A stretch of DNA of 18,241 nt from an uncultured Nitrososphaeraceae archaeon. Lineage in GTDB: Archaea > Thermoproteota > Nitrososphaeria > Nitrososphaerales > Nitrososphaeraceae. This document shows positions 4 through 18,241 of the stretch, one piece after another (the stretch's first letter is position 1; each line of letters opens with the position of its first letter). Under the pieces are notes generated by a model. It worked only from the letters and a program-made list of their open reading frames with translations, searched no databases and was not told where the DNA came from. A program made the translations under genes and the position numbers. The stretch covers positions 1 to 18,241 of the forward strand of contig CAWIMJ010000019.1 of NCBI GenBank assembly GCA_963837175.1, given 5' to 3'.

Positions 4-707
4 GGCTCTGTTTACTTAAGCCATCATCTTCGTATTATGATAATCAACGAAAAAATTGAACCAATTTCTGATATGTTGTAGTTTACATTTATTTTTCTTT
101 TCTACTACAAGGAAAGTAGTCATGATCAAAGCTTTCGGTTCTATCCTTTTGATGTCCTCTGTATGGTTCTTTCAATCATGCTTTTCTCATAGGAGAAATG
201 CAGATGATGATGATTATTCATATTCAGGAATTTACAAGCCTGTGGATAGATACCATGTACCACTACCATCAGTAGAGACTGGATGTTTTCCATATTTCCT
301 AACCAATTCTTGTTGTAGAAATCGTTCAGCAACAAGCATTGTTCTTTCTTTTAAAGGAAATACGAATACCAAGAATTATTTTATCTATTGATTCAATTGC
401 AATCCACAGCCATACAAATTCATTACGAACTTTAAGCAATGTTTCATCTATAATAAATTCTGATAATACCTTCTTTCTCTTTTGAGATATCTTGGCTTAT
501 TATATCGTTGAATCCAGTTCCAAATAGAAACATGGTTTCTTTTGATAAATGCAGACAAATGTTCTGATGTTTTCCTAAGAGAAAGACCTGAAAAATATAA
601 GTGTAATGCATAATAATAGATATACTTTGAAGATGTTCTATTTCTTTTGAACATAAAGGCAATTAATATATTGAAAGCTATAGGTTTAACCTTAAGTGAA
701 CAGAGCC
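4..707 (-). mobile_element. IS6-family insertion sequence (degenerate)
   Basis: 17-bp terminal inverted repeats GGCTCTGTTTACTTAAG (4-20) and CTTAAGTGAACAGAGCC (691-707), one mismatch. GGCTCTGTT ends are typical of IS6 elements, and the repeats enclose a DDE transposase remnant. Confidence 0.9.
16..654 (-). pseudogene. IS6-family DDE transposase, multiply frameshifted
   Basis: Pieces read across frames: LHLYFSGLSLRKTS..NHVSIWNWIQRY, IIDETLLKV..VWLWIAIE, HPVSTDG..TWY, EKSMIERTIQ, DRTESFD..YFPC..CKLQHIRNWFNFF, with a stop at 16-18. Confidence 0.85.
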
Positions 708-806
708 CAGAAACACATCATAAAACTATAAATAATATATATATCATGTCTTTGTCTTAAATGCTAGAATTTAGCAGTTGTTGCTGCTATAACAAGATGA
801 TTTATA

Positions 807-1601
807 ATGAGTTATGAAACCCCCATGAAAACGACCATTTCTCTTAAATTGGTTTCACTTTTGACTATGACATTGCTGATATCTACTATAGTATTTTCTT
901 CAGAAATAGGTACAGCTAATGCACAGAAATATTCTGTAATTGCTACTATACCTGTTGGTCAAGATCCATTTGGAGTTGCTGTTGATCCATATTATGGCTT
1001 AGTATATGTGACCAGTGCTCTTTCAAACATGTCTCTTTAATATGTGACCAAGTGCTCTTTCAAACATGTGTCTCTTTAAAGCGGAGATCCTGCAACTAAC
1101 ACAGTAATTGCTACTATACCTGTTGGTGATAGTCCATATGGAGTTGCTATTAACCCAACTAATGGCTTGGTATATGTGGCCAATGGTTTTTCAAACACAG
1201 TCTCTGTAATAGATCCTACAACTCGCACAGTAGTTGCTACTATAACTGTTGGTAATGGTCCATTTGGAGTTGCTTTTAACCCAACTAATGGTTTGGTTTA
1301 TGTGACCAATGAAAATTCAAACACAGTCTCTGTAATATATCCTAGAACTAACACAGTTGCTACTATACCTGTTGGTGGTGGTCAATATGAAGTTGCTGTT
1401 AATCCCGCTAATGGTTTGGTTTATGTGACCAATGCTGATTCAAACACAGTCTCTGTAATAGATCCTACAACTAACACAGTAGTTGCTACTATACCTGTTG
1501 GTAGTAATCCAACTGGAGTTGCTTTTAACCCAATTAATGGTTTGGTTTATGTGACCAATGAAAATTCAAACACAGTCTCTGTAATTTCTACAGTATCATA
1601 A
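807..1601 (+). pseudogene. Secreted YVTN/YncE beta-propeller repeat protein, split (5 repeats)
   Basis: Hydrophobic signal peptide followed by 42-aa repeats ([28 protein letters not shown]). The frame is broken by a ~36-bp tandem duplication at ~1005-1080, giving ORFs 807-1040 and 1167-1601. Confidence 0.85.
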
Positions 1602-1895
1602 CCCCTGCTACTACTACCACCACCACTACCAACTACTACTATACCAGGTTTAGATGCAGCAGGCAGCAAAAGCAGCTAATCAAACATGCAGAGAAAAAGC
1701 AGTTGATTAAAGTGCTATAGTAGTAATGATTCCTCAAAGCACCATGGAAATGATGATGATGGGTAACAAGACTTCCTGACCGGCAGTATATATAGTGATA
1801 ATAAAGATGATGATGATGATCTTATGACCGAATTAGAAAGTTTTGATGAGAAATTACAGGGTGCAGCAAATGCATCAGGTATGTCTATACAACTT

Positions 1896-2050
1896 TATAG
1901 ATAGAACAGAATGTTTTGATGATTATTATTTTCCATGTAGAAAAAGAGATAACTGTAAACTAGAACATCATGTTAGCAATTGGATGATGAATCAGTTTGT
2001 TTATATGCATATAGAATGCTTATTAAAGGAAAAATTAAGTGAACAGAGCC
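1896..2050 (+). mobile_element. IS6 3' fragment with terminal inverted repeat
   Basis: IDRTECFDDYYFPCRKRDNCKLEHH..NW resembles the transposase C-terminus in 4-707. It ends in TTAAGTGAACAGAGCC at 2050. Confidence 0.85.
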
Positions 2051-2111
2051 TACTGCTACTACTAATAATTCAAATAATAAGAAAGCGACAAGCAAATAAC
2101 AAACAAATTGA

Positions 2112-2139
2112 TAGCTTATTATCTTGAGATAATAAGCTA
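2112..2139. repeat. 28-bp palindrome, site A (TAGCTTATTATCT-TG-AGATAATAAGCTA)
   Basis: Perfect 13-bp arms around a 2-bp centre. The reverse complement of 2109-2139 matches 17671-17701 at 30/31 positions. Confidence 0.9.
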
Positions 2140-2179
2140 AGCTATGACCACTTCTTACACACATATGTTTTATTTCATG

Positions 2180-2365
2180 AAAATAATAGGATGATAGTAA
2201 GTAAGAAACAAAGCAAGAGGTAGGTAGATAGGTAGGCAGCCAAGCAGTTAGCAGGTAAGTAAACAAGCAGAAGAGAAGAAGATTCTTCCCAAACCTACGA
2301 GCTATCAACTACTAACCTACTTACCTACTTACTAACCATCCCACCCACTTGCTTGTCTGCCTAAT
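2180..2365. repeat. Degenerate tetranucleotide-period tract, purine-rich then pyrimidine-rich
   Basis: TAGG TAGA TAGG TAGG CAGC CAAG ... TAAG TAAA CAAG, followed by CTAA CCTA CTTA CCTA CTTA ... CCCA CTTG CTTG TCTG. Confidence 0.75.
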
Positions 2366-2404
2366 TAGAAGTTCAACATATATTATTTAACAATTAAGAT
2401 CTAT

Positions 2405-2815
2405 CTACTCCTCGCCTGAAATGCCAGCACCGATATAATGCAAGCGAAATGACCCTTTACCCTCGTCTACTGTATCAACAGCAGGATGGGTATATACATA
2501 GTAAGTAATGCCTTGTATGGCTTCGTCTCTATTAAGCGCAGGCAAATTATAGTAATCGCGAAGGGCCTGCTTTACTTCTCCGGTGTGCATTATCTTTTCA
2601 AAGCGTAACGTCTGATCGACGAATAAATTGGCCTTCTTTTGTAAGTATTCTCGCCTTCTCTGGGTTCCATATTGGTCGTCTGCGCTAAGCTCTGGTAAAT
2701 TACTAATTGGCTTATAGCCAGGGTGAAACGGTGTAATTTTTCTGTTGCCGCCTGTTTCTGCTATCCCGCTGTCGTTTCTGACTGTGCGTCTGCTACTATT
2801 ATTGTATATTGACAT
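2405..2815 (-). CDS. Hypothetical protein (136 aa)
   Basis: Uninterrupted ATG ORF with globular-protein composition, visibly more GC-rich than the cargo region. No family recognised. Confidence 0.65.
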   Translation of the reverse strand: MSIYNNSSRRTVRNDSGIAETGGNRKITPFHPGYKPISNLPELSADDQYGTQRRREYLQKKANLFVDQTLRFEKIMHTGEVKQALRDYYNLPALNRDEAIQGITYYVYTHPAVDTVDEGKGSFRLHYIGAGISGEE

Positions 2816-2955
2816 ATCGCTATTTCGTCCTTCCTACCAAATTTATATTACAAAACGAATTGATTAAAATGTTGCTCTTCTCGTGGACGCCCACGCTATC
2901 TATCGCTAGTTGCCCGAAATGGGCTGTCAAAGGCAGGGGTGGAATATCTAACTAG

Positions 2956-4250
2956 CTGAGGCTGGGTCATAATTATTTCATTTTCATAACGAATAAAGCT
3001 AGTCTATGGGAGTATGATATTTTGGTGAAAGACAATCATCCTCGCCAACAAACTAGCACATAAGAGATTTATACTAACTAACAAAAGTTCGTTTACAGAT
3101 TTTTCTTAATATGTAAGGTTTACTATGCTTAAAAAATCCTTTTACTTGGTTTTAAAAGATATACGAAATTATGTTAGGCAGTATAGATCTATTCTAATTA
3201 GTATTTTGTATTTGATTGGTTTGATATAGTGGTCGAAACATGATAGGAGAAAAAATAAGAAATGTGGCAGACCATATGTCTATTCTCCCACTGTTATTTT
3301 GAGATGTTTTGTAGTACGTATCTGGTTTAGATCAGATTCGAACAGAGCATTACATGAATACCTTGCAATGGATCTATCATATAACAAAAAGGTAATGAAA
3401 GGTGTGGACTATCCAAAATACCATGCAGAAGAACATTTGATAGACGTCTTGCTACGATATCTAATGATATTAAAAATAGAATTACTACAATGGGTAAACT
3501 TTTTGTACGTGATAACATAATTGATCCGTCTATTCTCTCAGCAGACAGGTACTCTTGTAAAGGCTAAAGGTCATGTATGGCACAAATCCTCAATGAAGAA
3601 AAGAATAGTACCACGATCGGGTATTGATGATACTGATGCAAGATGGGGATTTAGTTAGTCATACAAAAGGATGGATATTTGGATACAAATTACATTTGAT
3701 ATCAAGTACTGGTTCCATTATTGTACCTTTGGCAGCAGATTTTACAACTGCCAACATACCAGATAATCAGATATACAATACGTTAATAGCAAGTCTACCT
3801 GTTACAACTTCAAGGAAAATACTCTATGTTTCTGCAGATCCTGGATATGATGATCATGAAATGTATGAACTCAGTACAGAGATGGGATTTCAGTTAGTGT
3901 GTCCAGTAAGGAGATATAAGAACACTTCTGTTGACAGGATAAAACTGGTAGAATTTTATAAATCTGAAGTAGGACAGGCTATCTATTCGTTGAGAGGTAT
4001 ATCAATAGAACCACTGATAGAACATATAAAATCTGTCTTTAGGATAAATCCATTGTAAGTAAGAGGATATAGTAAGGCTTGTGCTATAGTACTATTATCA
4101 TTATTGCTATATCAGATACTTGTTTATTATAACTGTAAAACCAACAAAAAGGATCCAAGAGCAATCAAATACATGCTAGGAACATAATGACTGACTATAT
4201 TGATTATTGATATGATAATATTTGTTCATCAAAATATGACCCAGCCTCAG
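2956..4250 (+). mobile_element. IS element of the IS4/IS5 clan (DDE_Tnp_1-type), degenerate
   Basis: Perfect 16-bp terminal inverted repeats CTGAGGCTGGGTCATA (2956-2971) and TATGACCCAGCCTCAG (4235-4250) around a transposase remnant. The true ends could lie 2 bp further inside. Confidence 0.85.
3125..4187 (+). pseudogene. DDE transposase with frameshifts and internal stops
   Basis: Reconstructed motifs GRPYVYS, RRTFDRRL, SAD(S)TLVKA, DTDARWG, GWIFGYKLHL, ADPGYD, IEPLIEHIK, ending KYMLGT*. Confidence 0.85.
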
Positions 4251-4417
4251 ATAAATAGCATATTTGAGCAGGATCATATCATATTGTCGAAGGAAATCCA
4301 AAATAGAGAAACAAATTATTGGACCAAAATACCCAAAGCGACAATATTCATACAGATCATCATGCCCTTGTATTTCATTTATAAAATGTATTTAAATAAA
4401 TATGAGATATAGAATGG

Positions 4418-4512
4418 TCAGGTACTACTACCAAGAATAGATCTAAGTGAGGTAATAGATGGTGAAAAGAAATATTCACCCCTTGTTGGAATAACCCAAT
4501 CTAATATACTGC
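4418..4512 (-). pseudogene. C-terminal fragment resembling a DyP-type peroxidase
   Basis: ILDWVIPTRGEYFFSPSITSLRSILGSST* resembles the DyP C-terminal motif V.P.GGEYFF.PSI..L. Confidence 0.55.
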
Positions 4513-4514
4513 TT

Positions 4515-4643
4515 GTAAAATACCATTCTTTTCCAAAACCAAAATATTATTACTATCTATAAGGCCATGCTAGTAGGGCGTGACAACTGGGAAGTAACGA
4601 GATCTATTTTCAAGTTAGGATCCTTTAGTGAAGGCATATTACC
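4515..4643 (-). pseudogene. N-terminal fragment of a PQQ-dependent sugar (glucose/sorbosone) dehydrogenase
   Basis: MPSLKDPNLKIDLVTSQLSRPTSMA(F)IDSNNILVLEKNG, with one frameshift, matches the first blade of GSDH-type proteins. Confidence 0.65.
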
Positions 4644-5340
4644 AACATAGACCTAATTTAGATGGATATCGAAAAAAGAAATAATATAATGATCGCAGTA
4701 ATTCGATATAAAAATAAAGCGGACAACAATTTAGTATTCACTCTCTGCCTAAAATGCATTCTTCTTCACCTTCAAAAAAGGTGATCACTGCAAAAATTCC
4801 TTATATAATTTCGTAATTAATATACATAATATCGTTGTCCAAATAATATTCATAGGTATCCCTTATCCTAATCTTTCTGATGTTTTACTATTGGCTTTAG
4901 ATGGTGATGAATCTTTTGTATCAAATGAGAAAATTTGTTATATTATAAAATCCATTTTTAAAAAATAACTTTTTTTTCAATTCTCTGATTCAAATGGGAT
5001 TGTATAATATATTTTATTGACGCTATCTTATCAAGGAAATAAATTCTTATCTTTTATAATTGCATACCAAGGATAAAATGTCATAATTTAATTTACCAAC
5101 TATAACTTTAACAGGTTTAAGTGTCATTTTGATTTTCTTCCTGATCGTAATAATGCATATATATCCTCATTATAGCTAATTGGCTTTGATATTCAATGAG
5201 CTTTTTGGGGGATGAACATAGTATAACTAATATAATTTACCTGTGAATTATTTTATGGCGTAAACTTGAAATTGTAAAAAGAAATCTTGTACTTCTATTT
5301 TGATAACTTTAGAATATATTTTTGTAAAAAAATAAAAGAA

Positions 5341-5850
5341 TTATTGGGATGTCGCGTTAGAAGTTGTTGTTGTCATGTTACCAATTCTTGTTGTTGTCAT
5401 GGTTGTTGTCATGTTACCAATTCCTGCAGCACCCTCCGGAGGCGTTGCGTGGAACATGCCATTTAGAACACAAACCGGCCAACTAGTAGGATCGATTACG
5501 TTGATCGTGACAACTGAGTTAGGATCTGCATCTATGCCCGTTATATAAAAGGCCCATGTCATTCCATCTGGCATCCAACCTTGTTTACCATCTCGTATTA
5601 CTCCTGAGGATGTTATCTGACCGTTTTTGACTACAGCATAATTTAATGTTGCTCCTGGACTTGGCGCATCGCGATTTTGAGGAGCTAGTTGTTGAGGAGG
5701 TAAATGAGTGGGATCTACATCTGCGCAGGTAACAATCATAGTTAAATTTGCTCCCTGTGCAAATGCATTGTTTGGAAGCGCGAAGATTCCTGCTGAGATT
5801 GTCAATACTGTTGCCCACCCCATTGCTAAGATTATTTTTGCGTCGAACAT
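5341..5850 (-). CDS. Secreted hypothetical protein with Thr-rich repeated tail
   Basis: Signal peptide ending AFA-Q. The C-terminal IGNMTTT motif is duplicated, with NxT sequons. Confidence 0.8.
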   Translation of the reverse strand: MFDAKIILAMGWATVLTISAGIFALPNNAFAQGANLTMIVTCADVDPTHLPPQQLAPQNRDAPSPGATLNYAVVKNGQITSSGVIRDGKQGWMPDGMTWAFYITGIDADPNSVVTINVIDPTSWPVCVLNGMFHATPPEGAAGIGNMTTTMTTTRIGNMTTTTSNATSQ

Positions 5851-6828
5851 ATTATAACGCTAGATCGAAATTAACTATAATAAGATTTTCCTTAATTTTC
5901 AAAATAACAGTCTGATAAAAGAGAAAGGCAATTATTAGCAAAAAAGAAACGATCGAAAATGTTCTGTAAAGTATCTCTACAACTGATCAAGGAAAATAAA
6001 TATACAGTATGTAACAAAAAGTATTCTGAATATTGAGATAGCACATATACAATCATTAATCATTCTGTTCAAATTTTATCGCATAGAAGACTAGTATAGA
6101 GCTCCACCACTAAGCATCCATTTGACCTATCCACATTATAAATTGATTTAATTGAAAAACACGATACAATCAATTTATTTTTATCTCTATTGTATTAGTG
6201 GAAAATTAATACTCTTTGGTTGTACGATGTAGTGAAATGTAACAACAGAACGTAGCTCTATCTAAAAACATATTAGTTATCATAACAAAATAATCTAGTC
6301 ATCAGGGAAAAAACACAGCTGCAATATCTAATTTGCGGATATGGGATCAGTGAACTAGCTCAACTTAGTTAAGTTAACAGGCCATTTGGTTATGGTTAAC
6401 ATATGAGCCAAATTTACATGTCTCTGCTTGTTATTTCATATATTAAGAGAAACGCCTATTTTTGCTTTTTATCAATTTTTCAAACAGATTAGGAAAAAAT
6501 ATGGAATAAGGAAGCTTTTATTAAATACATATTACATAATAGATTGATTTATTTAGAAGAACATACATAGTAGACATGATACACAAATGAATTTTTTGCA
6601 AGAACTTTAGGCAGATTATTCTCTATTTATAAGTTGGTAATTAAATGCTTGCATTTGGATCTTTCGCACAATCAATTTCTCATTGTGTTCGTTTTATTTC
6701 TGCGAGATAAACCTCTAAAGGTTTTTCTCTTCTGTCAATCTCTTTTACTGCTCTCCTGACTGTGTCATTGTATTATATATCTTGTTGAGAAAATTCCATC
6801 AATGTTCTTACCTTCTCTCGTCTTCCAC

Positions 6829-7284
6829 CTTGCAACATCTGAAATAAATCCTGATCAGCCAAAGAAAAGAGGATTTCCTTTTAACGATCTTACTCAATTG
6901 ATGCAAGATAATAATTCAACAAGAATAGTAGCAATTTTAGATTGTTGTTATAGTGGATCTGCGAAAATTAGTAAGGGTCATGAAGATGATGCAGCAAAAT
7001 TAGCTACGGCTGCTATTAACAGACAATCAAATGAACTTAATACCGGAGAAGGAAAGTGTATTTTGGCTGCTAGCCAAGCTCTCCAAGAAGCATATGTATT
7101 GGAAGAGCAGAATCATAGTGTATTTACTTATTACTTGCTTCAGGGTCTAAAAGGTGAAGAAGAAGCAGCGGCAGATAATAATGGTAATATTACAGTGGAT
7201 TCCCTGGGCAGGTATATTCATAATAAAATTATGTTACTGCCACAATTAATTAATTATCAATCAATCATTGCAATCAAATCCTGA
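6829..7284 (+). pseudogene. Caspase-like (peptidase C14) domain fragment
   Basis: ILDCCYSG catalytic-Cys motif, ILAAS..QEAY, HSVFTYYLLQGLKG and DNNGNITVDSL are present. The N-terminal SGHG catalytic-His region is absent. Confidence 0.8.
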
Positions 7285-7454
7285 ATACATTCAACTACTA
7301 CTAGATAGAATAAATGATAAGCCCTTTGGATCTGGTATATAGTAGAAGAACATAAGCAATAAGATATTATTAAAACGAAAGGAGATTGCTGCTTTAATTA
7401 TATCATTGGTATGCCAAACAAAAATGGATTAGACAAGGCATTCTTATGTTCTTA

Positions 7455-7943
7455 TCATAATGCTCTATTGTGTGCCTGATCATCTCGCTCATGTATTGGT
7501 CCTATAGATCCCCAGCTACCAGAATATTCACCTGTAATCTCCAAAACATCATCACTATACGAAATCTCCTTGAGTATCTCTAATGTCAACTTTTGATTTG
7601 TGACATAATGAGTGCCCTTATCATATACAGCAGGTCTCATTCCAGTTTTTTGAAATATATAGTTTTTAGCTTTTTCTGGATTTGTTCCATTTTTTGTAAA
7701 TACCTCTAGCGTATACATTGGTCCTTCTGCATTATTATTACTGGACTGATTATACTCCCTCTCACGAGAAAGTAAATCCTCAATAAATCCAGGTACCACT
7801 TTAGGTAAAACCTGTGTATATATTGCCTGCAATTTCTTACGCTGTATTCTTAATGCATTTAGTTCAACTGATTCTTTCCTGATTCCAGAGCCTGTTAATT
7901 CAAATATTTCTTTTCCAAACATAGATTCTGATAGTTTGCTCAT
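7455..7943 (-). CDS. Hypothetical protein (162 aa)
   Basis: Clean ORF with globular composition. The real start may lie upstream (~8005) across a frameshift in the G/A run at ~7950-7970. Confidence 0.75.
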   Translation of the reverse strand: MSKLSESMFGKEIFELTGSGIRKESVELNALRIQRKKLQAIYTQVLPKVVPGFIEDLLSREREYNQSSNNNAEGPMYTLEVFTKNGTNPEKAKNYIFQKTGMRPAVYDKGTHYVTNQKLTLEILKEISYSDDVLEITGEYSGSWGSIGPIHERDDQAHNRAL

Positions 7944-8283
7944 ATATTCTTCTTCCCCCTCCTCCTTTTGTTTCTTTTATCTTTTCTAACATTTCGGACA
8001 TCATATCAGTTAATGTAGCATCAGCAATTGATTTAGATATGGTGCAAGTCCAAGTTAGGTTTTAAGCCAATTTTAGTATCAGGTGTCTGGTTTGTATACT
8101 CTGACTACAGAAAGCAGACAGACAGAGTGTTAAAATCAATATATAAAAAAACTTAAGGATATTATCGATGGTCGGTGTTATATTATCTAACTTTATTCTT
8201 TAATCTATTAAATAATAATATTATTCCCTACTATTTTTTTTCTGAATTAATTTATATTGGTTAGTTCACAATAACAATAATGA

Positions 8284-9246
8284 TCAACTCTGTGCGGCAA
8301 GGCGTCTTTTTCTAGTTACTAATTCTTCTGACTCACTCAACCTTCTGTTAATTTCTCTTTTCAACCATTCTTGATAGTATACTAATTTAGTTGTAATAAA
8401 TACCTCAGTTCTCTCTACTCCATCATAAGATTCTAGCCTTTTCAATATTAAATCAACCGTGGGTATGTTTGCACAAAAGAATACTGCAAAAATAAGGTCA
8501 CTTTGATTTGGATTTTGAATAAAGACCAAGTATTCCTGCATTTCGTGGTATATTCTTTCAATGATATTTTGGTAAAGCGATCTTTGTACATGGATTATTA
8601 CTGCAAATTCGATGTATCCAACTAATTGCATAGAAGACATGTCTCTGAGAATAGAAAATTGTAGAACATGGTTTTCTCTCATTTTTTGCAATCGCCTTGT
8701 TACGGTCTTTGTTGATATTGTTGATTCTTTAGCAATATTTTCGACTTGCATTCTAGCATTTGATAACAGATATTTTATGATTTTAAAATCAGAGTTATGT
8801 ATTTTCATAGATATTTGTTTGTAAGTTACTAACATACTGTCCTCCACAATAACTGCTGGTTTTAGCAAATTAACCATTAGTCCAATCTTATCCTCTCCTC
8901 CAGCTTTAATTGATAGCACAAATATAGAAGCTCGTCCTAATTGCTTAGCAAACACAGATACATCTCCTAAGAGATTGAGGCGATTAACAATTTCCTCTTC
9001 TTTGATTGTTTTTTCAGTATGTCGTACTGTCAAAATACATTCTTTTTCATATCTGAAAATTACAGGGTTTACTCTTACCACAAAATTTTGTATTATTCCA
9101 TTAGAAGTCATTTTATTAATTCTTTCTTTGACTGCATTTGGAGTTATGCCAACAGTAGAAGCTATATTTCTATAAGGGATTCTACAATCTACAGAAAGAG
9201 AATTTATAATTGTTAAATCTATTTTATCTATCACTGTCTTGGGCAT
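8284..9246 (-). CDS. Lrp/AsnC-family transcriptional regulator with tandem duplicated HTH and effector domains
   Basis: Two AsnC-type wHTH motifs: DKIDLTIINSLSVDCRIPYRNIASTVGITPNAVKERINKM and DFKIIKYLLSNARMQVENIAKESTISTKTVTRRLQKM. Confidence 0.9.
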   Translation of the reverse strand: MPKTVIDKIDLTIINSLSVDCRIPYRNIASTVGITPNAVKERINKMTSNGIIQNFVVRVNPVIFRYEKECILTVRHTEKTIKEEEIVNRLNLLGDVSVFAKQLGRASIFVLSIKAGGEDKIGLMVNLLKPAVIVEDSMLVTYKQISMKIHNSDFKIIKYLLSNARMQVENIAKESTISTKTVTRRLQKMRENHVLQFSILRDMSSMQLVGYIEFAVIIHVQRSLYQNIIERIYHEMQEYLVFIQNPNQSDLIFAVFFCANIPTVDLILKRLESYDGVERTEVFITTKLVYYQEWLKREINRRLSESEELVTRKRRLAAQS

Positions 9247-9467
9247 TCAATTCCAAGTAACATAACGGACCCCGATAAGAGTTTTGGTCTCATTTATGCA
9301 GCAAGCCTTGCACTATAGATAAATTCTATGTATAACTTGGTAATTCAATGACAAAACTCTATATGTATACGGATAAGATGGGAGCTTACCAGTTACCTGG
9401 AATAGAAGAAATACTTCCATCACAGATAAAACAATATGAGATAATAAAAAAGGGGTGGCTGTAAAAA

Positions 9468-9904
9468 ATGGCAAAAAATGGTACAAGAGAACAACTATCT
9501 TCCTATCATTACTATCAATACTACTTTATTGCTGCTGAGCTGCTACTGCAATAGCTGGAATAGTACATCTGTATATGCCACTCGCGCATCCGAGAATGTT
9601 TGAAAATATACCAATGGTGACATTCTTTCTTGGTTCCGGAATTGCACAGATATTTTGGATATTGCCTATGATAAAGAGATGGGGAAGAATATGGTATTAT
9701 ATAGGAATTGCAGGAAATATAGCTTTTATAATACTATATGTTATAACACGATTCCCTGGCAATCTTGTTAATGGAAAAGGTGGAGATGTTGATGCAGTTG
9801 ATATGATATGTGAATTGGCGCAAGTAGCATATATAGCAATAACTGCAGTGATACTAGCTAAAGAAAGAAGTATAAAAGTAGTTGATAAGGAACAGCTAAG
9901 GTAA
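9468..9904 (+). CDS. Small multi-pass membrane protein, N-terminus probably frameshifted
   Basis: ORF 9575-9904 has three hydrophobic helices. The in-frame upstream ATAIAGIVHLY suggests a fourth helix and a start near ATG 9468. It is divergent from the Lrp/AsnC gene. Confidence 0.7.
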
Positions 9905-9907
9905 ACA

Positions 9908-10062
9908 GGCTCTGTTCACTTAATTTTTCCTTTAATAAGCATTCTATATGCATATAAACAAACTGATTCATCATCCAATTGCTAACATGATGTTCTAGTT
10001 TACAGTTATCTCTTTTTCTACATGGAAAATAATAATCATCAAAACATTCTGTTCTATCTATA
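9908..10062 (-). mobile_element. IS6 3' fragment with terminal inverted repeat (inverted copy of 1896-2050)
   Basis: GGCTCTGTTCACTTAA at 9908, and the translation is the same as for 1896-2050. Confidence 0.85.
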
Positions 10063-10349
10063 AAGTTGTATAGACATACCTGATGCATTTGCTGCACCCT
10101 GTAATTTCTCATCAAAACTTTCTAATTCGGTCATAAGATCATCATCATCATCTTTATTATCACTATATATACTGCCGGTCAGGAAGTCTTGTTACCCATC
10201 ATCATCATTTCCATGGTGCTTTGAGGAATCATTACTACTATAGCACTTTAATCAACTGCTTTTTCTCTGCATGTTTGATTAGCTGCTTTTGCTGCTGCTG
10301 CATCTAAACCTGGTATAGTAGTAGTTGGTGGTGGTGGTAGTAGTAGCGG

Positions 10350-10976
10350 TTATGATACTGTAGAAACCACAGAGACTGTGTTTGAACGAACATTGGTCAC
10401 ATATGCCCAGCCATTAGTTGGGTTAATTGCAACTCCAAATGGACCATCACCAACAGCTATAGTAGCAACTACTGTGTTAGTTCTAGGATATATTACAGAG
10501 ACTGTGTTTGAATTAGAATTGGCCACATATACCAAGCCATTAGTTGGGTTAATAGCAACTCCATATGGACTTACACCAACAGGTATAGTAGCAACTACTG
10601 TGTTAGTTCTAGGATATATTACAGAGACTGTGTTTGAATTAGAATTGGCCACATATACCAAGCCATTAGTTGGGTTAATAGCAACTCCATATGGACTTAC
10701 ACCAACAGGTATAGTAGCAACTACTGTGTTAGTTGCAGAATTTATTACAACGATTAGGTTTTCCTCAGCATTGGTCACATATACCAAGCCATTAGTTGGA
10801 TTAACAGCAACTCCATATGAATCACCACCAACAGGTAGAGTAGCAATTACAGAATATTTCTGTGCATTAGCTGTACCTATTTCTGAAGAAAATACTATAG
10901 AAATCAGGAGTGTCATAGTCAGAAGTGAAAACAATATAAGAGAAATGGTCGTTTTCATGGGGGTTTCATTACTCAT
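10350..10976 (-). CDS. Secreted YVTN/YncE beta-propeller repeat protein (4 repeats)
   Basis: Signal peptide plus four 42-aa YVTN repeats. Repeats 2 and 3 are identical 126-bp units. Confidence 0.9.
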   Translation of the reverse strand: MSNETPMKTTISLILFSLLTMTLLISIVFSSEIGTANAQKYSVIATLPVGGDSYGVAVNPTNGLVYVTNAEENLIVVINSATNTVVATIPVGVSPYGVAINPTNGLVYVANSNSNTVSVIYPRTNTVVATIPVGVSPYGVAINPTNGLVYVANSNSNTVSVIYPRTNTVVATIAVGDGPFGVAINPTNGWAYVTNVRSNTVSVVSTVS

Positions 10977-11241
10977 TATAAATCATCTTGTTACAGCAGC
11001 AGCAATTGCTAAATTCTAGCATTTAAGACAAGGATATGATATATATATTATTTATAGTTTTATGATATGTTTTCTGGGAATCCATTTTATCGATGATTAT
11101 TAGTAGTAAGGAATATTACACAACAATTTATGAAGTTCCCTGCTATCTCCACCGTTTTAATAGCCTGTCTTTACTATATCAAGAGCAAAACTAGTATACG
11201 TAAACTATATTATGATATCTATACAGCAGCGTGCTTAAAAA

Positions 11242-14284: not shown

Positions 14285-15455
14285 ACTGCTGTTGCTAAGT
14301 TAAGTCTCTGATTTTCTATCAACTATTTTTTAACCGAATGACAGTTATTCTTGATAACTAAGATTTTAGCTCATTGATTTGCACTCATTATTCTGAAACC
14401 ACATCCGCTCAAGGTGTTTAATGTTCAGAAGAAGGAATTATTCGATTTCATCAAGAATACCAGAAACAAGGAAGAGTACAAACGTGCATTAGCTGTAAAG
14501 CAGAAGATTGAAGGTCTATCATATAGAACTATAGCCAAGAATATCGGAGTTAATTACAGGAATGTTTATCGAATAGTTGATGCCTACAGACAAGAAAGAA
14601 TTAATGGTACAACGAGTAAGAGAAACAATGCAGGTAGAATACCAAAGATATCATCTGAAAAGAATAAGCAGATGATCAAAGACATAGTAATAAACAAGTC
14701 TCCAAGTACATTTGGATATCTGAAGAACACTTGGAGTATCAGACTATTAGCCAAATATCTATCTAAAGAGTTAATGATGAATGTCAGTCCAATGCAAACC
14801 TGGAGGATAATTAATGAGCTTGGAATCAAATACAAGAGACCTAAACTTGCTCTTGAACACGAAGATGATTATGAAGAAAAGAAGAAGGTTGTAGACAATT
14901 ACAAGAAGGTATCTTCTGCACTTTTAAAAAATGGTTCTTTTAGGATTTGAAGATGAGACATGGCTATACTTACGACCATACATAACTAATACATATATGA
15001 TGAAAGGAGATCAACAAAATATATTCCATAATGGAGCGAACAAAAAGGTCAATGCATTCATAACATTGCTTTATCCATCGAACAAGGTTAAGTTCAAGAT
15101 AAGCAAATCCAGAACAAGCAATGATTTCATAGATCATCTTAAGAACGTAAAACGTTACGTGAAAAATAATAGAGTGAAGCGATTTATACTTGTAATAGAC
15201 AATGCATCATTTCATGTAAGTAGAAAAACTAAAGATTTTTTGGATAAACAAGCTCAGTGGCTTACTGTAATATTCTTACCAATACGATCACCAAATCTTA
15301 ATCCAGTTGAAACAAGAGTGAACAGGAACCTGAAGAAGGATATTTGTGCTAACCACAACTATCAAACAGAAGGGACTTTAATAGCTGCTGTAACAAAATA
15401 TCTTAAATCTATAGGTAGTTGGCAGAGATTATGATACTTGACTTACTACAGCAGT
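14285..15455 (+). mobile_element. IS630-family insertion sequence
   Basis: Imperfect terminal inverted repeats ACTGCTGTTGCTAAGTTAAGT and ACTTGACTTACTACAGCAGT enclose a two-ORF transposase. Confidence 0.82.
14414..15434 (+). CDS. IS630 transposase (HTH OrfA 14414-14950, DDE OrfB 14931-15434)
   Basis: HTH, GRIPK, WSIRLLA and LGIKYKRP in OrfA. FEDET, IDNASFH and SPNLNPVE in OrfB. The ORFs overlap at TTTTAAAAAA. Confidence 0.88.
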
Positions 15456-15513
15456 TAAAACTAAAATTAAAAAAGCCACTGTACAGAAGCAACAAGATCA
15501 GCAACTGCATCAG

Positions 15514-17153
15514 ATGCAACAGCAATTATCACTTCCTAAATTGCAGCGTAAAATTGAAGAAGTAACAGCTGATCTTCCAAATCAAGAAACTGTCAACAAA
15601 CTAACAGAGCTGCCCGCTGCCAATTCGCTGACCGTCTGCAGCTATTTAATTGCCATGAAGAAAGAGGTTAATTCATCAAAGAAGTACAGACAAACGAACA
15701 TCCAGACTCTCTGTTATTTATCCAGACATCATAAACATCAACTACGCTATGAAGACATGACTAGAGACGATGTAATCATGTACCTTAATAGTTTGATGAA
15801 ACCTGATAGTATAGAATCCTCAACATAAGTATGTAGGAACATATAACGTACGCCTGATCTATCTACAGAGATTCTTCAAATGGCTGTACTCCCCAAATAT
15901 CCCACAGAACCAAAGACCCATGCCAGCAGCAGTAATGCAAAACATTCCAAGACTAAGGCGTAAAGTGATCACTACAATCAAGCCTTCCGATCTGTGGACA
16001 GAGGAAGACGATGCTCTATTCTTGAAGTACTGCGATAGCAAAAGAGATAAGGCCTACCACATGATCGCTAGAGACTCATCATGTAGGCCCAGCGAGATTC
16101 TAGGACTAAGGATAAAAGATCTGGCCGTCATGCAGACTGTAGACAAGAAGCTGTATTACCAGATAACAGTAAATGGAAAGACTGGAACTAGAAACATCCC
16201 TCTGTTTACTGCTGTTCCCTATGTTAAGAACTGGCTAGACGATCACCCGATGGGTAAGAATCCAAACGCGTACCTGATTTCCACTTTGGACATTAGGCAC
16301 CATCTGACTAAGGGCAATCGCATGCTGTCCTCTTCAATGAACGCTATCTATAACAAGCACTACAAGACTGAAATCTTTAAAGACAGATTATTAAAAGACC
16401 CGATAGTACCGCCAGAAGATAAGATAAAGATTCGTGAGTTATTGAAAAAGCCATGGAATCCCTACATTAGAAGGCATAGCGCATTAACCCAGAAGGCTCA
16501 GAAACTGACAGCTCCCGTCTTGAAAGCAGCATGCAGGTTGGTCCCCTGGAAGCAAGATGGAAACTAAATATCTGCACTTTCTAGGCGCGGAGTCTAATGA
16601 CGCCATACTCTCTGAGATCTACGGCTTGGAGACTGCTGCCACTCTCAAGTCTAAGAAGCTGTCGCAGGCCATCGCTCCCAAGATCTGTACTAACTGCAAT
16701 GAGTCTAATATTCCTGATGCAAGATTCTGTAGCAAGTGCAGGATGGTATTAACGTATGATGCTTATCAAGAAACAATAGATGAACAGAAAAAGAAAGAAT
16801 CACGAGTAGAAGAATTAGAATTACAAGTCAAGAACCAGGCAGCAGCGCAGGCCGTTCATCAAAAATTATTAGAGACTATAGTAGGCATGCTTCAGAATGT
16901 CAATAGGCCAGAAATGCATGGTCAGAATAATGATCTGTTAAACATTCCAGAATTCAAGACGCTGACACATGAGCAAAAATTAGAAGGCCTGAAAGAAATT
17001 AGGGAAGAAACCCAAACCGCTATCAACGAAGTCCTAATTCCTGAAACTGCTAATCTCGTACATGGCTTATCAGAAAACAACAGAAAGAAGGTTAAAGACT
17101 CAGCAAAGAAAATGTTAGATGACAAAAGATGTAAGCAGGCCTTTGTTGAGTGA
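15514..17153 (+). CDS. Tyrosine recombinase/integrase with C-terminal zinc ribbon and coiled coil (three ORFs, two 1-bp frameshifts)
   Basis: SAM-like N-domain (LQRFFKWLY), catalytic R (CRPSE), K (GKTG), YIRRHS, QHAGW and Y (KYLHF), then CTNC..CSKC. Frameshifts at ~15815 and ~16525. Confidence 0.88.
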
Positions 17154-17227
17154 ATGAGTAAACAAGTAAGTTAGCAATCGTTAATAGTTCACTTTTTCAT
17201 ATTATATTATAGTGATCTAATAACAAC

Positions 17228-17734
17228 ATGCCCCAAGGCGATACAGTATATGATCAATTTTATCAGGCGGAACAGCAGAGAAAAGATAGGATAAAAACCT
17301 TCGGTACGTTGCGTTTAGCTGAGGATTATAGGAATGCTGCGGTTTGGTATACCGATAATATTTTGATACACAAAATCAATCAAGAAGACAATACTGAAAA
17401 TATTAGACAATGGCTTTCTGCAAACCTAAATATCAACACTAGAAATGAATCGGATCAAATAATCCGCTATATCGTTTTCAATCCCGATACAGATGTCATC
17501 CAACAGTACATTTCAGAAGCAAAGCAAATAGAATATAAAATTAAGCACAAGCAAACTGTGACAAGTGCTGCTAGGCTAGGGTTCAAAATGGCACACGCAA
17601 TTGAGGTTGAAAGACAGTTAGCAGAAGACAGAGAGCAGAAAGCAAAGAATACAAAAACAAAGATCCAGCATAGGTTATTATCTCAAGATAATAAGCTATC
17701 ACCGTCACCATACAAATTTTTAATTTTATTTTAA
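17228..17734 (+). CDS. Hypothetical protein downstream of the integrase
   Basis: 168-aa ATG ORF with helical composition. Its 3' end reads through palindrome site B. Confidence 0.7.
   Translation: MPQGDTVYDQFYQAEQQRKDRIKTFGTLRLAEDYRNAAVWYTDNILIHKINQEDNTENIRQWLSANLNINTRNESDQIIRYIVFNPDTDVIQQYISEAKQIEYKIKHKQTVTSAARLGFKMAHAIEVERQLAEDREQKAKNTKTKIQHRLLSQDNKLSPSPYKFLILF
17671..17698. repeat. 28-bp palindrome, site B (TAGGTTATTATCT-CA-AGATAATAAGCTA)
   Basis: Inverted copy of site A with one mismatch. Confidence 0.9.
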
Positions 17735-17900
17735 TAAAGTAAAATAAAGTAAGTAGACAAATAGAAAAGACTTCTCCATCCCTGAAAGCACTTTTTCTAT
17801 TCTTATTATTCGCTTTTCCCTTCCTTCCCCTTCTTCATTCTTAGTTAGCTTCTTGTTTGCTTACTTGTCTGTTTGCTCGCCCGCTTATTTGCTTCCTTCA
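17735..17900. repeat. Purine-rich then pyrimidine-rich tract with 4-nt periodicity
   Basis: AAAGTAAGTAGACAAATAGAAAAGA followed by TTAGTTAGCTTCTTGTTTGCTTACTTGTCTGTTTGCTCGCCCGCTTATTTGCTT. Confidence 0.7.
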
Positions 17901-17972
17901 CATGTTCTAAGCGTTTGATAAGGTAGATGTCCGTATGAAACTATATTATTTAAAAATTAAGTTGGATTATTC

Positions 17973-18241
17973 GGCTCTGTTTACTTAAGCCATCATCTTC
18001 GTATTATGATAATCAACGAAAAAATTGAACCAATTTCTGATATGTTGTAGTTTACATTTATTTTTCTTTTCTACTACAAGGAAAGTAGTCATGATCAAAG
18101 CTTTCGGTTCTATCCTTTTGATGTCCTCTGTATGGTTCTTTCAATCATGCTTTTCTCATAGGAGGAATGCAGATGATGATGATTATTCAGGAATTTACAA
18201 GCCTGAGGATACCATGTACCTCCATCGATTGAAACTGGATG
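17973..18241 (-). mobile_element. IS6-family copy, cut by the window end (direct repeat of 4-~295)
   Basis: 17973-18164 is identical to 4-195. Beyond that it is homologous but diverged. Confidence 0.92.

Follow-up and report, generated by a model that had tools for sequence, protein, structure and literature searches.

The 18,241-base contig C19, which is the whole of the window analyzed here, carries two diverged copies, A and B, of a non-coding cassette of about 290 bases. Each copy is built from two anchors held at a fixed distance, a palindrome and an AT-rich 20-mer; the sequence between them is first AT-rich, then purine-rich, and then pyrimidine-rich. We think that the cassette may be a self-contained minus-strand transcription unit, running from the 20-mer to the palindrome and its T-runs and surviving in eroded mobile-element DNA, a tentative reading to which we would give a probability of about 0.35. 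The parts of the two copies, and the open reading frames (ORFs) that adjoin them, are listed here.

2112..2139: palindrome A, with perfect 13-nt arms and a 2-nt center, TG
2140..2195: AT-rich spacer A, both strands showing short T-runs as read directly from the sequence
2190..2366, minus strand: filler A, with a purine-rich arm (2196-2274), a hinge (2275-2285), and a pyrimidine-rich arm (2286-2362)
2379..2398: 20-mer A, AT-rich
2405..2815, minus strand: ORF136, an orphan ORF with a local GC of 0.42, whose stop codon lies 6 nt from 20-mer A
17228..17734, plus strand: ORF168, an orphan ORF converging on cassette B
17671..17698: palindrome B, with one arm mismatch and the center CA, lying within the last 21 codons of ORF168
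17699..17941: spacer and filler B, AT-rich with T5/T4 runs, then a short purine tract to about 17770 and some 125 nt of period-4 pyrimidine sequence
17942..17961: 20-mer B, 19/20 identical to 20-mer A

Both anchors are rare. The 20-mer has only two matches in the window at three or fewer mismatches, where 0.04 would be expected and none of 200 shuffles reached two, and only two in the entire genome (3,810,681 bases) at two or fewer mismatches, both on C19. A 23-nt version of the palindrome gave four matches, which are the two sites read on both strands, against an expectation of 0.00, and no further exact copy of its 20-nt core is found in the genome beyond A and B. Palindrome A is among the top 15 of the genome's 68 perfect palindromes, counted with arms of at least 11 nt and a spacer of at most 8 nt. 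Motif order and strand are common to both copies, with a start-to-start spacing of 267 nt in A and 271 nt in B, and no ORF of at least 60 amino acids is common to the two. The earlier note, made from the letters alone, had described the recurrence of the 20-mer, its distance from the palindrome, and a direct repeat in which the palindrome core is flipped; the first and last proved correct as described and the distances correct to within 1 nt. The repeat, its rarity, and the conserved order and spacing of its motifs are established.

As direct repeats the two palindromes agree at 26 of 29 positions (29 nt), and as inverted repeats at 33 of 35, the inverted reading including an exact run of 27 nt. 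The inverted match is the better of the two because A has TG at its center where B has CA, and because a different outer arm has been kept in each copy. The centers could have come to differ through two adjacent transitions or through flipping of the hairpin loop. In copy A the TG center yields a TGA stop at 2125-2127, which closes an upstream open frame; with the CA center of copy B, ORF168 extends 17 codons further.

The copies were aligned segment by segment and compared with shuffles. High scores were obtained for the palindrome (z 9.4) and the 20-mer (z 8.2); the 57-nt tail upstream of the palindrome (z 0.0) and the 16 nt preceding the 20-mer (z -1.1) were at shuffle level, and the AT-rich spacer after the palindrome was marginal (z 1.7, with 17 of 200 shuffles equally good). 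The filler scored z 3.9, an overstated value, because the shuffle null breaks the segregation of purines from pyrimidines. Since the other segments align no better than shuffles, what the copies can be shown to have in common is limited to the two motifs together with their order and spacing; the earlier note had likewise seen no alignment by eye in the intervening DNA. A full alignment had hinted at homology reaching the boundaries of the adjoining insertion sequence (IS) elements, an idea that was dropped when the shuffle test did not support it. The combination of motifs at z 8 to 9 with flanks at shuffle level implies that selection or gene conversion has probably acted on the motifs, and the anchors appear to be under constraint.

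The switch from purine-rich to pyrimidine-rich sequence, with a 4-nt periodicity, is present in both copies, as had been noticed by eye, at GAAGATTCTTC (2275-2285, copy A) and AAAAGACTTCTCC (17766-17778, copy B). The period-4 purine/pyrimidine amplitude of copy A, 0.469, ranks second of the 279 genome peaks at or above 0.33, the only higher peak being a perfect (AATC)21 microsatellite; that of copy B is 0.387, and the genome 99.99th percentile is 0.376. TRF identified a period-4 array at 2196-2262 in filler A. With relaxed scoring it found 186 period-4 arrays genome-wide, 157 of which lie mostly outside long open frames (these frames cover 59% of the genome), and a highly similar TAAG/TAGG tract occurs on another contig (C35:20204-20268). 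The period-4 signal is strong and real, yet not peculiar to the cassette. It may represent slippage-derived cryptic simplicity of a kind common in the non-coding DNA of this genome; if so, the filler would be unalignable because such slippage makes it evolve too fast.

Copy A is also distinguished by its predicted folding. The minus-strand RNA of the 301-nt cassette (2100-2400) folds at -89.2 kcal/mol (z -5.62), and a 177-nt hairpin within it has 64 pairs, 14 of them G·U, and an energy of -66.4 kcal/mol, compared with -36.9 kcal/mol on the plus strand. Because a purine arm set against a pyrimidine arm in the same register will pair partly by composition, shuffling within arms was chosen as the null. 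On the minus strand, the observed -65.1 kcal/mol compares with -42.6 ± 4.1 for mononucleotide shuffles (z -5.5) and -51.4 ± 5.0 for shuffles of tetramer blocks (z -2.8), and in neither set were any of 100 shuffles as good; the plus strand was no better than the nulls (z -1.6 for mononucleotides and 0.04 for tetramer blocks). Random 177-nt genome windows (n = 2583) gave a mean of -29.2 ± 7.8 kcal/mol and an absolute strand difference of 5.8 ± 4.6, with a 99th percentile of 19.0; the difference for copy A is 29.5. Folded as single-stranded DNA, copy A is weak (-21.8 and -15.6), so that its structure would matter, if at all, at the level of RNA. That copy A carries a strand-specific, RNA-level fold is established as far as such predictions go.

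No significant fold was found for copy B (minus strand, z +0.65; plus strand, z -2.58), and a secondary structure common to the two copies is absent (minus strand, z -5.62 in A and +0.65 in B). The minus-strand non-coding RNA that had been suggested thus gains partial support, and in copy A alone, whose strand difference exceeds the 99th percentile of the 2583 windows; copy B has no such fold. A genome scan for purine-to-pyrimidine switches returned 70 candidates with a best fold of -52.9 kcal/mol, none of them like copy A, which itself scored under the threshold of that scan; because nothing comparable emerged, we see no family of such hairpins. Searches against Rfam gave no match at the gathering score over the whole window, and none at an E value of 1 or less over 616-3635 and 16175-18241.

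On the minus strand the 20-mer reads CTTAATTkTTAAATAATATA, which resembles a BRE-like stretch followed by a TATA-like box (TTAAATAA); TTAAATAAT is also found upstream of one tRNA-Thr gene in the same genome. With the TATA element centered in the 20-mer, the predicted start would fall near 2360, at the base of the copy A hairpin. A promoter weight matrix built from 16 tRNA upstream TATA regions placed the 20-mers at the 98.9 to 99.6th genome percentile, equally on both strands. The TATA-like box of the earlier note is to that extent compatible with a promoter, scoring near the 99th percentile, but unspecific as to strand. Read directly from the sequence, T4 to T5 runs flank each palindrome on both sides on the minus strand, and also follow the palindrome on the plus strand.

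We propose that a single self-contained non-coding cassette gave rise to both modules, which would be its diverged paralogues. The 20-mer would supply a BRE/TATA-type core promoter on the minus strand, with start sites near 2360 (A) and near 17923 (B). The transcript would then cross some 190 nt of purine-then-pyrimidine low-complexity sequence, forming a long G·U-rich hairpin in copy A, and would stop at the T-runs around the AT-rich palindrome, which might act as a two-way stop signal that also serves the converging ORF168-type gene. Archaeal termination is generally held to need T-runs, not hairpins, so that a terminator role for the palindrome itself is a guess. What we infer is that the unit is transcribed, that the 20-mer acts as its promoter and the palindrome as its terminator, and whatever function the RNA might have.

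Several points argue against a transcription unit. The putative RNA body is the least conserved part of the cassette, the opposite of what is usual for a structured small RNA, and copy B has no significant predicted minus-strand fold (z +0.65). Much of the calculated fold energy of copy A arises from purine and pyrimidine arms in the same register, the tetramer-block null already reaching -51.4 kcal/mol. The promoter score of the 20-mer is equally good on the plus strand, and, from the sequence searches, Rfam matches and relatives for covariation testing are absent. A literature search for small-RNA or start-site maps of the group returned none relevant among the matches listed. We nevertheless place minus-strand transcription first, at the probability given above of roughly one in three, as it would account for why copy A folds on one strand, where the 20-mer sits, and why T-runs are present.

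The setting of the cassettes bears on what else they could be. The assembly consists of 58 contigs, 3.81 Mb with 34% GC and a contamination of 3.24%. C19 is crowded with mobile DNA and is made up mostly of IS elements and gene fragments, with various host-like genes also present. The mobile-element features are as follows.

4-707: short IS6-like element with terminal repeats GGCTCTGTTyACTTAA
1663..2050, minus strand: 388-nt IS6-like left-end fragment from a related member, its terminal repeat ending at 2050
3624-4058: DDE_Tnp_1 fragment
14414-15434: IS630-type pair
17973..18241, plus strand: IS6-like element that begins 11 nt past 20-mer B and runs off the contig end

Positions 3-220 recur unchanged as 17972-18189, so that the contig begins and ends in near-identical IS copies, and the fragment at 1663..2050 is 100% identical to the reverse complement of 9907-10295, an inverted copy that starts at 9908. 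The terminal repeat has 156 matches in the genome at three or fewer mismatches and about 100 at two or fewer, and target duplications of 8 bp were seen at IS6-like copies on contigs C13 and C34. We call the elements IS6-like on account of the terminal repeat, the 8-base duplications, a weak, sub-threshold match to DDE_Tnp_IS240 (E = 0.0015) in the frame-shifted copy at 4-707, and, in part, the presumed likeness of the terminal repeat to that of IS26.

From the IS end at 2050 it is 59 nt to position 2109 and 62 nt to palindrome A at 2112; 11 nt separate 20-mer B from the IS end at 17973. Both cassettes are uncut and intact up to these ends, and the IS boundaries are established. The pattern resembles a natural deletion mapping of a unit that was worth retaining, though two cases make weak evidence. 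GC content is 0.40 to 0.43 at 2501-3000 (ORF136) and at 15501-17000 (the integrase and Zn-ribbon genes described below), compared with 0.34 for the genome, which suggests that the two islands could come from one foreign source. The cassette would then belong to GC-richer, decayed mobile-element DNA that comprises a split integrase, a Zn-ribbon gene, and orphan ORFs, and that has since been cut into islands by the short IS6-like elements.

In such surroundings the cassette could be a non-functional relic, an old intergenic duplication scrambled by slippage and truncated by IS elements, with its motifs left by chance or by short-tract gene conversion. The preponderance of IS elements and gene fragments on C19, the orphan status of the neighboring ORFs, the abundance of degenerate period-4 tracts in the genome, and the failure of copy B to share the fold of copy A would all fit. 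The non-repetitive flanks, however, no longer align above shuffle level, yet identity in the motifs remains at 19/20 and 26/29 or 33/35, and because exactly the two motifs have been spared, neutral decay is disfavored; both copies, moreover, end uncut at 11 to 62 nt from IS ends. We regard a relic as rather unlikely. The proposal that the module is a functional unit is accordingly a reasonable one, in that its motifs are far better conserved than their surroundings and its copies are intact to the IS ends, while function as such is what we infer.

Another concern is whether the pair of copies was created in assembly, by the joining of variants from different strains through IS repeats into a chimeric contig. 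The fragmented and slightly contaminated assembly, the near-identical IS copies at both contig ends, and the many IS-mediated joints in soil runs are of the kind that would favor such an error. Yet the copies have diverged far beyond strain variants, with wholly different flanks, and even a chimeric contig would leave the motif pair real in two genomes; we therefore find an artefact hardly credible.

We also considered whether the cassette might be the origin of replication, or the partition site, of a plasmid-like element later fixed between IS copies. An AT-rich spacer stands beside a long palindrome, the purine and pyrimidine tracts are strongly biased, and circularization of the IS-bounded segment 2051-17972 would make the two copies adjacent. 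Against this, initiator, Rep, Cdc6, ParA, and ParB domains are absent from the 19 ORFs scanned, and there are no iteron-like or ORB-like repeats, the AT-rich spacer being the only feature expected of an origin that is present. The fold of single-stranded DNA is weak, and the two IS junctions have no matching 8-bp target duplication (TACTGCTA versus GATTATTC); this mismatch leaves unsupported the idea that a circle was opened between the copies in one cointegration event. The origin or partition site put forward in the earlier note thus finds no support here, and we judge it very improbable.

A more serious alternative is that the cassette is a recombination site, used by the tyrosine integrase encoded nearby or by a relative. 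The genes concerned are the following.

15514..16567, plus strand: tyrosine-integrase gene, split into frames of 104 and 215 amino acids (Phage_integrase, E = 1.1e-6)
16557-17153: Zn-ribbon gene, following the integrase

The integrase/Zn-ribbon pair recurs on three other contigs (C45, C6, and C2), and the paralogue on C2 is an intact integrase of 405 amino acids, whereas the C19 gene is broken. PHROGs and NCBIfam returned nothing for ORF168 or ORF136, the integrase being the sole match. The palindrome would form the core of the site, two inverted binding arms around a short crossover region, and the 20-mer, some 245 bp to one side, an arm-type or accessory site kept at a fixed distance by a spacer that is free to vary in sequence. 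On this view, related elements would have integrated one after another, with the two copies as their att sites, or the copies would form an inversion pair.

Much is compatible with a recombination site. The integrase gene lies 1.1 kb upstream of copy B, with its Zn-ribbon partner, and conserved motifs at a conserved spacing with a free spacer are the pattern expected of protein-binding sites. Palindrome B overlaps the 3' end of ORF168, the raised GC of both islands hints at a single foreign source, and the palindromes share their 27-nt exact run in inverted orientation. In thaumarchaeal integrated elements (PMC6563490), att repeats are reported to be short (median, 17 bp), defined integration sites in 68 elements include 14 in the 3' ends of protein genes and 15 that are intergenic, and serial integration at one site is known; a recombination site on C19 would fit these reports. 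The direct repeats that should flank an integrated element are present, 29 nt with 26/29 and 20 nt with 19/20, in direct order and about 15.5 kb apart.

An identical crossover in direct orientation, however, is not found: the centers are TG in A and CA in B, a difference that would hinder excision, and the 27-nt identity is seen only when the palindromes are inverted. The integrase is split into 104 and 215 amino acids, against 405 in the C2 paralogue, and the tRNA target is absent, the window containing no tRNA gene. The paralogous integrase loci on C45 and C6 are not followed by any cassette of this kind. No palindrome-to-palindrome joint was found among those listed (15 of 23) for three soil DNA runs, in which cover of the cassette is unestablished, and the strand-specific RNA fold of copy A is left unexplained. 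The cer/psi-like site of the earlier note, or an att-like one, may still apply, given an integrase gene 1.1 kb from copy B, but that gene is split and the centers are unequal in direct orientation. We consider a recombination site unlikely, albeit less so than a relic.

Two bolder possibilities, which we take together, are less probable than a relic. One is that the palindrome pair is a recombinase-driven switch that inverts 15.5 kb. The other extends the minus-strand transcription unit to a mobile-element-borne RNA gene of a new kind, in which a conserved promoter and a palindromic end may bracket a fast-evolving body of degenerate YARG tetranucleotides, whose purine and pyrimidine halves may, as modeled, zip into a very long G·U-rich hairpin. 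Such a unit may have been kept while IS elements eroded its surroundings, for example as a regulatory or counter-defense RNA of an archaeal integrative element.

Relatives of the cassette were sought widely. The palindrome core, at one or fewer mismatches, matched in two of 400 other genomes of the order, each with one mismatch, which is background because the reversed-pattern control matched in six. A 26-nt degenerate palindrome had no match in the metagenome_contigs or genome_contigs collections. In viral_contigs, the 20-nt core gave seven loci, all with four to six mismatches to the full palindrome, and the 20-mer never came nearer than four mismatches. A spaced-pair query, consisting of the right arm of the palindrome, a gap of 225 to 255 nt, and 10 nt of the 20-mer, gave 20 genome loci (19 in bacterial records and one in a Promethearchaeota MAG) and one viral locus, none with both full motifs; none of the 20 genome loci was in ammonia-oxidizing archaea, and we attribute the matches to chance. 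The earlier note had looked to co-occurrence of the motif pair elsewhere, and no other instance was found, which speaks against a widespread element and is still compatible with a lineage-specific one. Within the genome, a 19-nt exact match to 20-mer B at C2:31080 was set aside as chance, since it lies inside an ORF of 327 amino acids.

The adjoining ORFs were just as isolated. ORF168 retrieved only itself from 5.8 billion proteins in a near-length search; a scan of 60 further family genomes gave one weak match, an IS-fused remnant, and there was no viral locus. ORF136 was found in none of 40 relatives and, from 147 pattern matches, at no metagenome locus; among 1.84 billion representatives it retrieved itself and one repeat protein, whose score was inflated by eight repeats. 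No soil metagenome run contained more than 0.37 of the words of 2052-9900, and 18 DNA runs from 7 studies contained 0.30 to 0.37. The soil-run contigs listed on C19 fall on IS elements and conserved genes, with cover of the cassettes unestablished, and those listed for the one RNA run fall elsewhere than on the cassettes.

At present, then, this is a two-copy feature of a single contig, without relatives in the collections searched, and its value is chiefly that of a lead. Little is known of functional non-coding DNA or RNA on the mobile elements of soil archaea that resemble ammonia oxidizers. If real, the cassette would be a self-contained unit of two conserved anchor motifs and a free-running, low-complexity body, and a tractable case of mobile elements that keep their signals while the intervening sequence turns over by slippage.

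Among known systems, the crossover sites of serine invertases (hix and gix) are 26 bp long. The palindromes resemble them in having inverted arms of 12 nt around an asymmetric 2-nt center, with opposite centers in the two copies; they differ in that no serine recombinase gene is present among the ORFs scanned and in that the flanks of the cassettes are in direct, not inverted, order. The Xer sites cer and psi have a palindromic core with some 200 to 250 bp of accessory DNA on one side only. The cassette likewise joins a palindromic core to one-sided accessory DNA, a likeness of layout. Unlike those sites, it lies in an archaeal host, has no apparent sequence likeness to dif-type cores, and has arms of 12 to 13 nt around an asymmetric 2-nt center; no accessory proteins are known here.

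The att sites of thaumarchaeal elements (PMC6563490) are matched by repeats of about 20 to 30 nt that flank some 15.5 kb with an integrase gene near one end, one of the repeats lying in the 3' end of an ORF. The cassette departs from them in having two conserved blocks 245 nt apart instead of one, a crossover center that is not identical in direct orientation, and a split integrase; no empty or excised form appeared among the soil-run joints listed, and the genome searches gave no related locus.

Compared with archaeal intergenic small-RNA genes, which have a BRE/TATA promoter and oligo-T termination, the cassette has an AT-rich, promoter-like sequence of about 20 nt suitably spaced from the foot of a stable hairpin, T-runs downstream, no shared ORF, and a strand-specific predicted fold with many G·U pairs. 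It differs from them in having no Rfam family and no structure conserved between its copies, and in a body of degenerate tetranucleotide repeats. Finally, the cassette shares with cryptic simple sequence its YARG-type 4-nt units, their detection by TRF at a relaxed score, and a non-coding location like that of 157 of the 186 period-4 arrays. It stands apart from such sequence in that the amplitude of copy A is the second highest in the genome, that its purine arm pairs with a complementary pyrimidine arm, and that unique conserved motifs bracket the tract.

An insertion-sequence fragment forms a perfect 389-nt inverted repeat in the window, positions 1663-2051 against 9907-10295, as identified by self-comparison, and is adjoined by genes encoding YVTN repeats (711-1625 and 10326-11072), which are themselves inverted duplicates with 85-91% identity. 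The 7.9 kb between the inverted repeats could flip via homologous recombination; among the joints listed, opposite-strand joints 1085/10394 and 1505/10567 were present in two soil sequencing runs, compared as contigs. The YVTN genes, of the beta-propeller type, also contain internal tandem repeats of 126 nt (42 aa) at 982-1585 and 10369-10850, with units that share 60-94% identity with one another.

A repeated element, widespread and with a variant of different length, lies at 3046-4263. Across three soil metagenome runs, the summed contig depth for 3046-3654 was 188-496, compared with ~10 for its neighbours, and all four runs compared, one of them an RNA run, showed contigs that skip 115 nt between 3068 and 3184.

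Four contigs of the genome (G000) carry a tyrosine-integrase gene with a Zn-ribbon/coiled-coil gene downstream of it.

Locations of the integrase and Zn-ribbon/coiled-coil gene pair
15514-17153, window
14613-15932, contig C45
24035-25256, contig C6
1923-3357 of locus L038, contig C2

The integrase of C2 is intact, at 405 aa, and that of the window is broken into two frames, of 104 and 215 aa. Between the window's Zn-ribbon gene and ORF168 lies a further short tract (17114-17177; …GAATGAGTAAACAAGTAAGTTAGCAA) with 4-nt purine/pyrimidine periodicity; the strongest such signal in the genome is a perfect (AATC)21 microsatellite at C12:222878-222960.

Protein database searches covering billions of proteins gave no homologue for ORF136 (2405-2815, minus strand), beside cassette A, or for ORF168 (17228-17734, plus strand), which converges on cassette B. 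The DNA around ORF136 has a GC content of 0.42, compared with 0.34 for the genome. Among 60 other genomes of the family, ORF168 had a single weak match, in a same-genus genome, at locus L015 (G242:C62:4241-7486), where it is spanned by no open frame of at least 80 aa and directly adjoins a transposase remnant and the end of an IS6-like element.

IS6-like elements, 617-720 bp in length, are very abundant genome-wide and are accompanied by 8-bp target duplications, seen at the copies on C13 and C34.

IS6-like elements or ends in the window
4-707, element
2050, end
9908, end
17973, end

The copies look too short to encode a full transposase, and the single copy examined is frame-shifted. A whole-genome pattern search with their terminal repeat, GGCTCTGTTyACTTAA, gave 156 matches across 3.8 Mb when as many as 3 mismatches were allowed; the name that we use for these elements derives in part from the likeness of this repeat to that of IS26.
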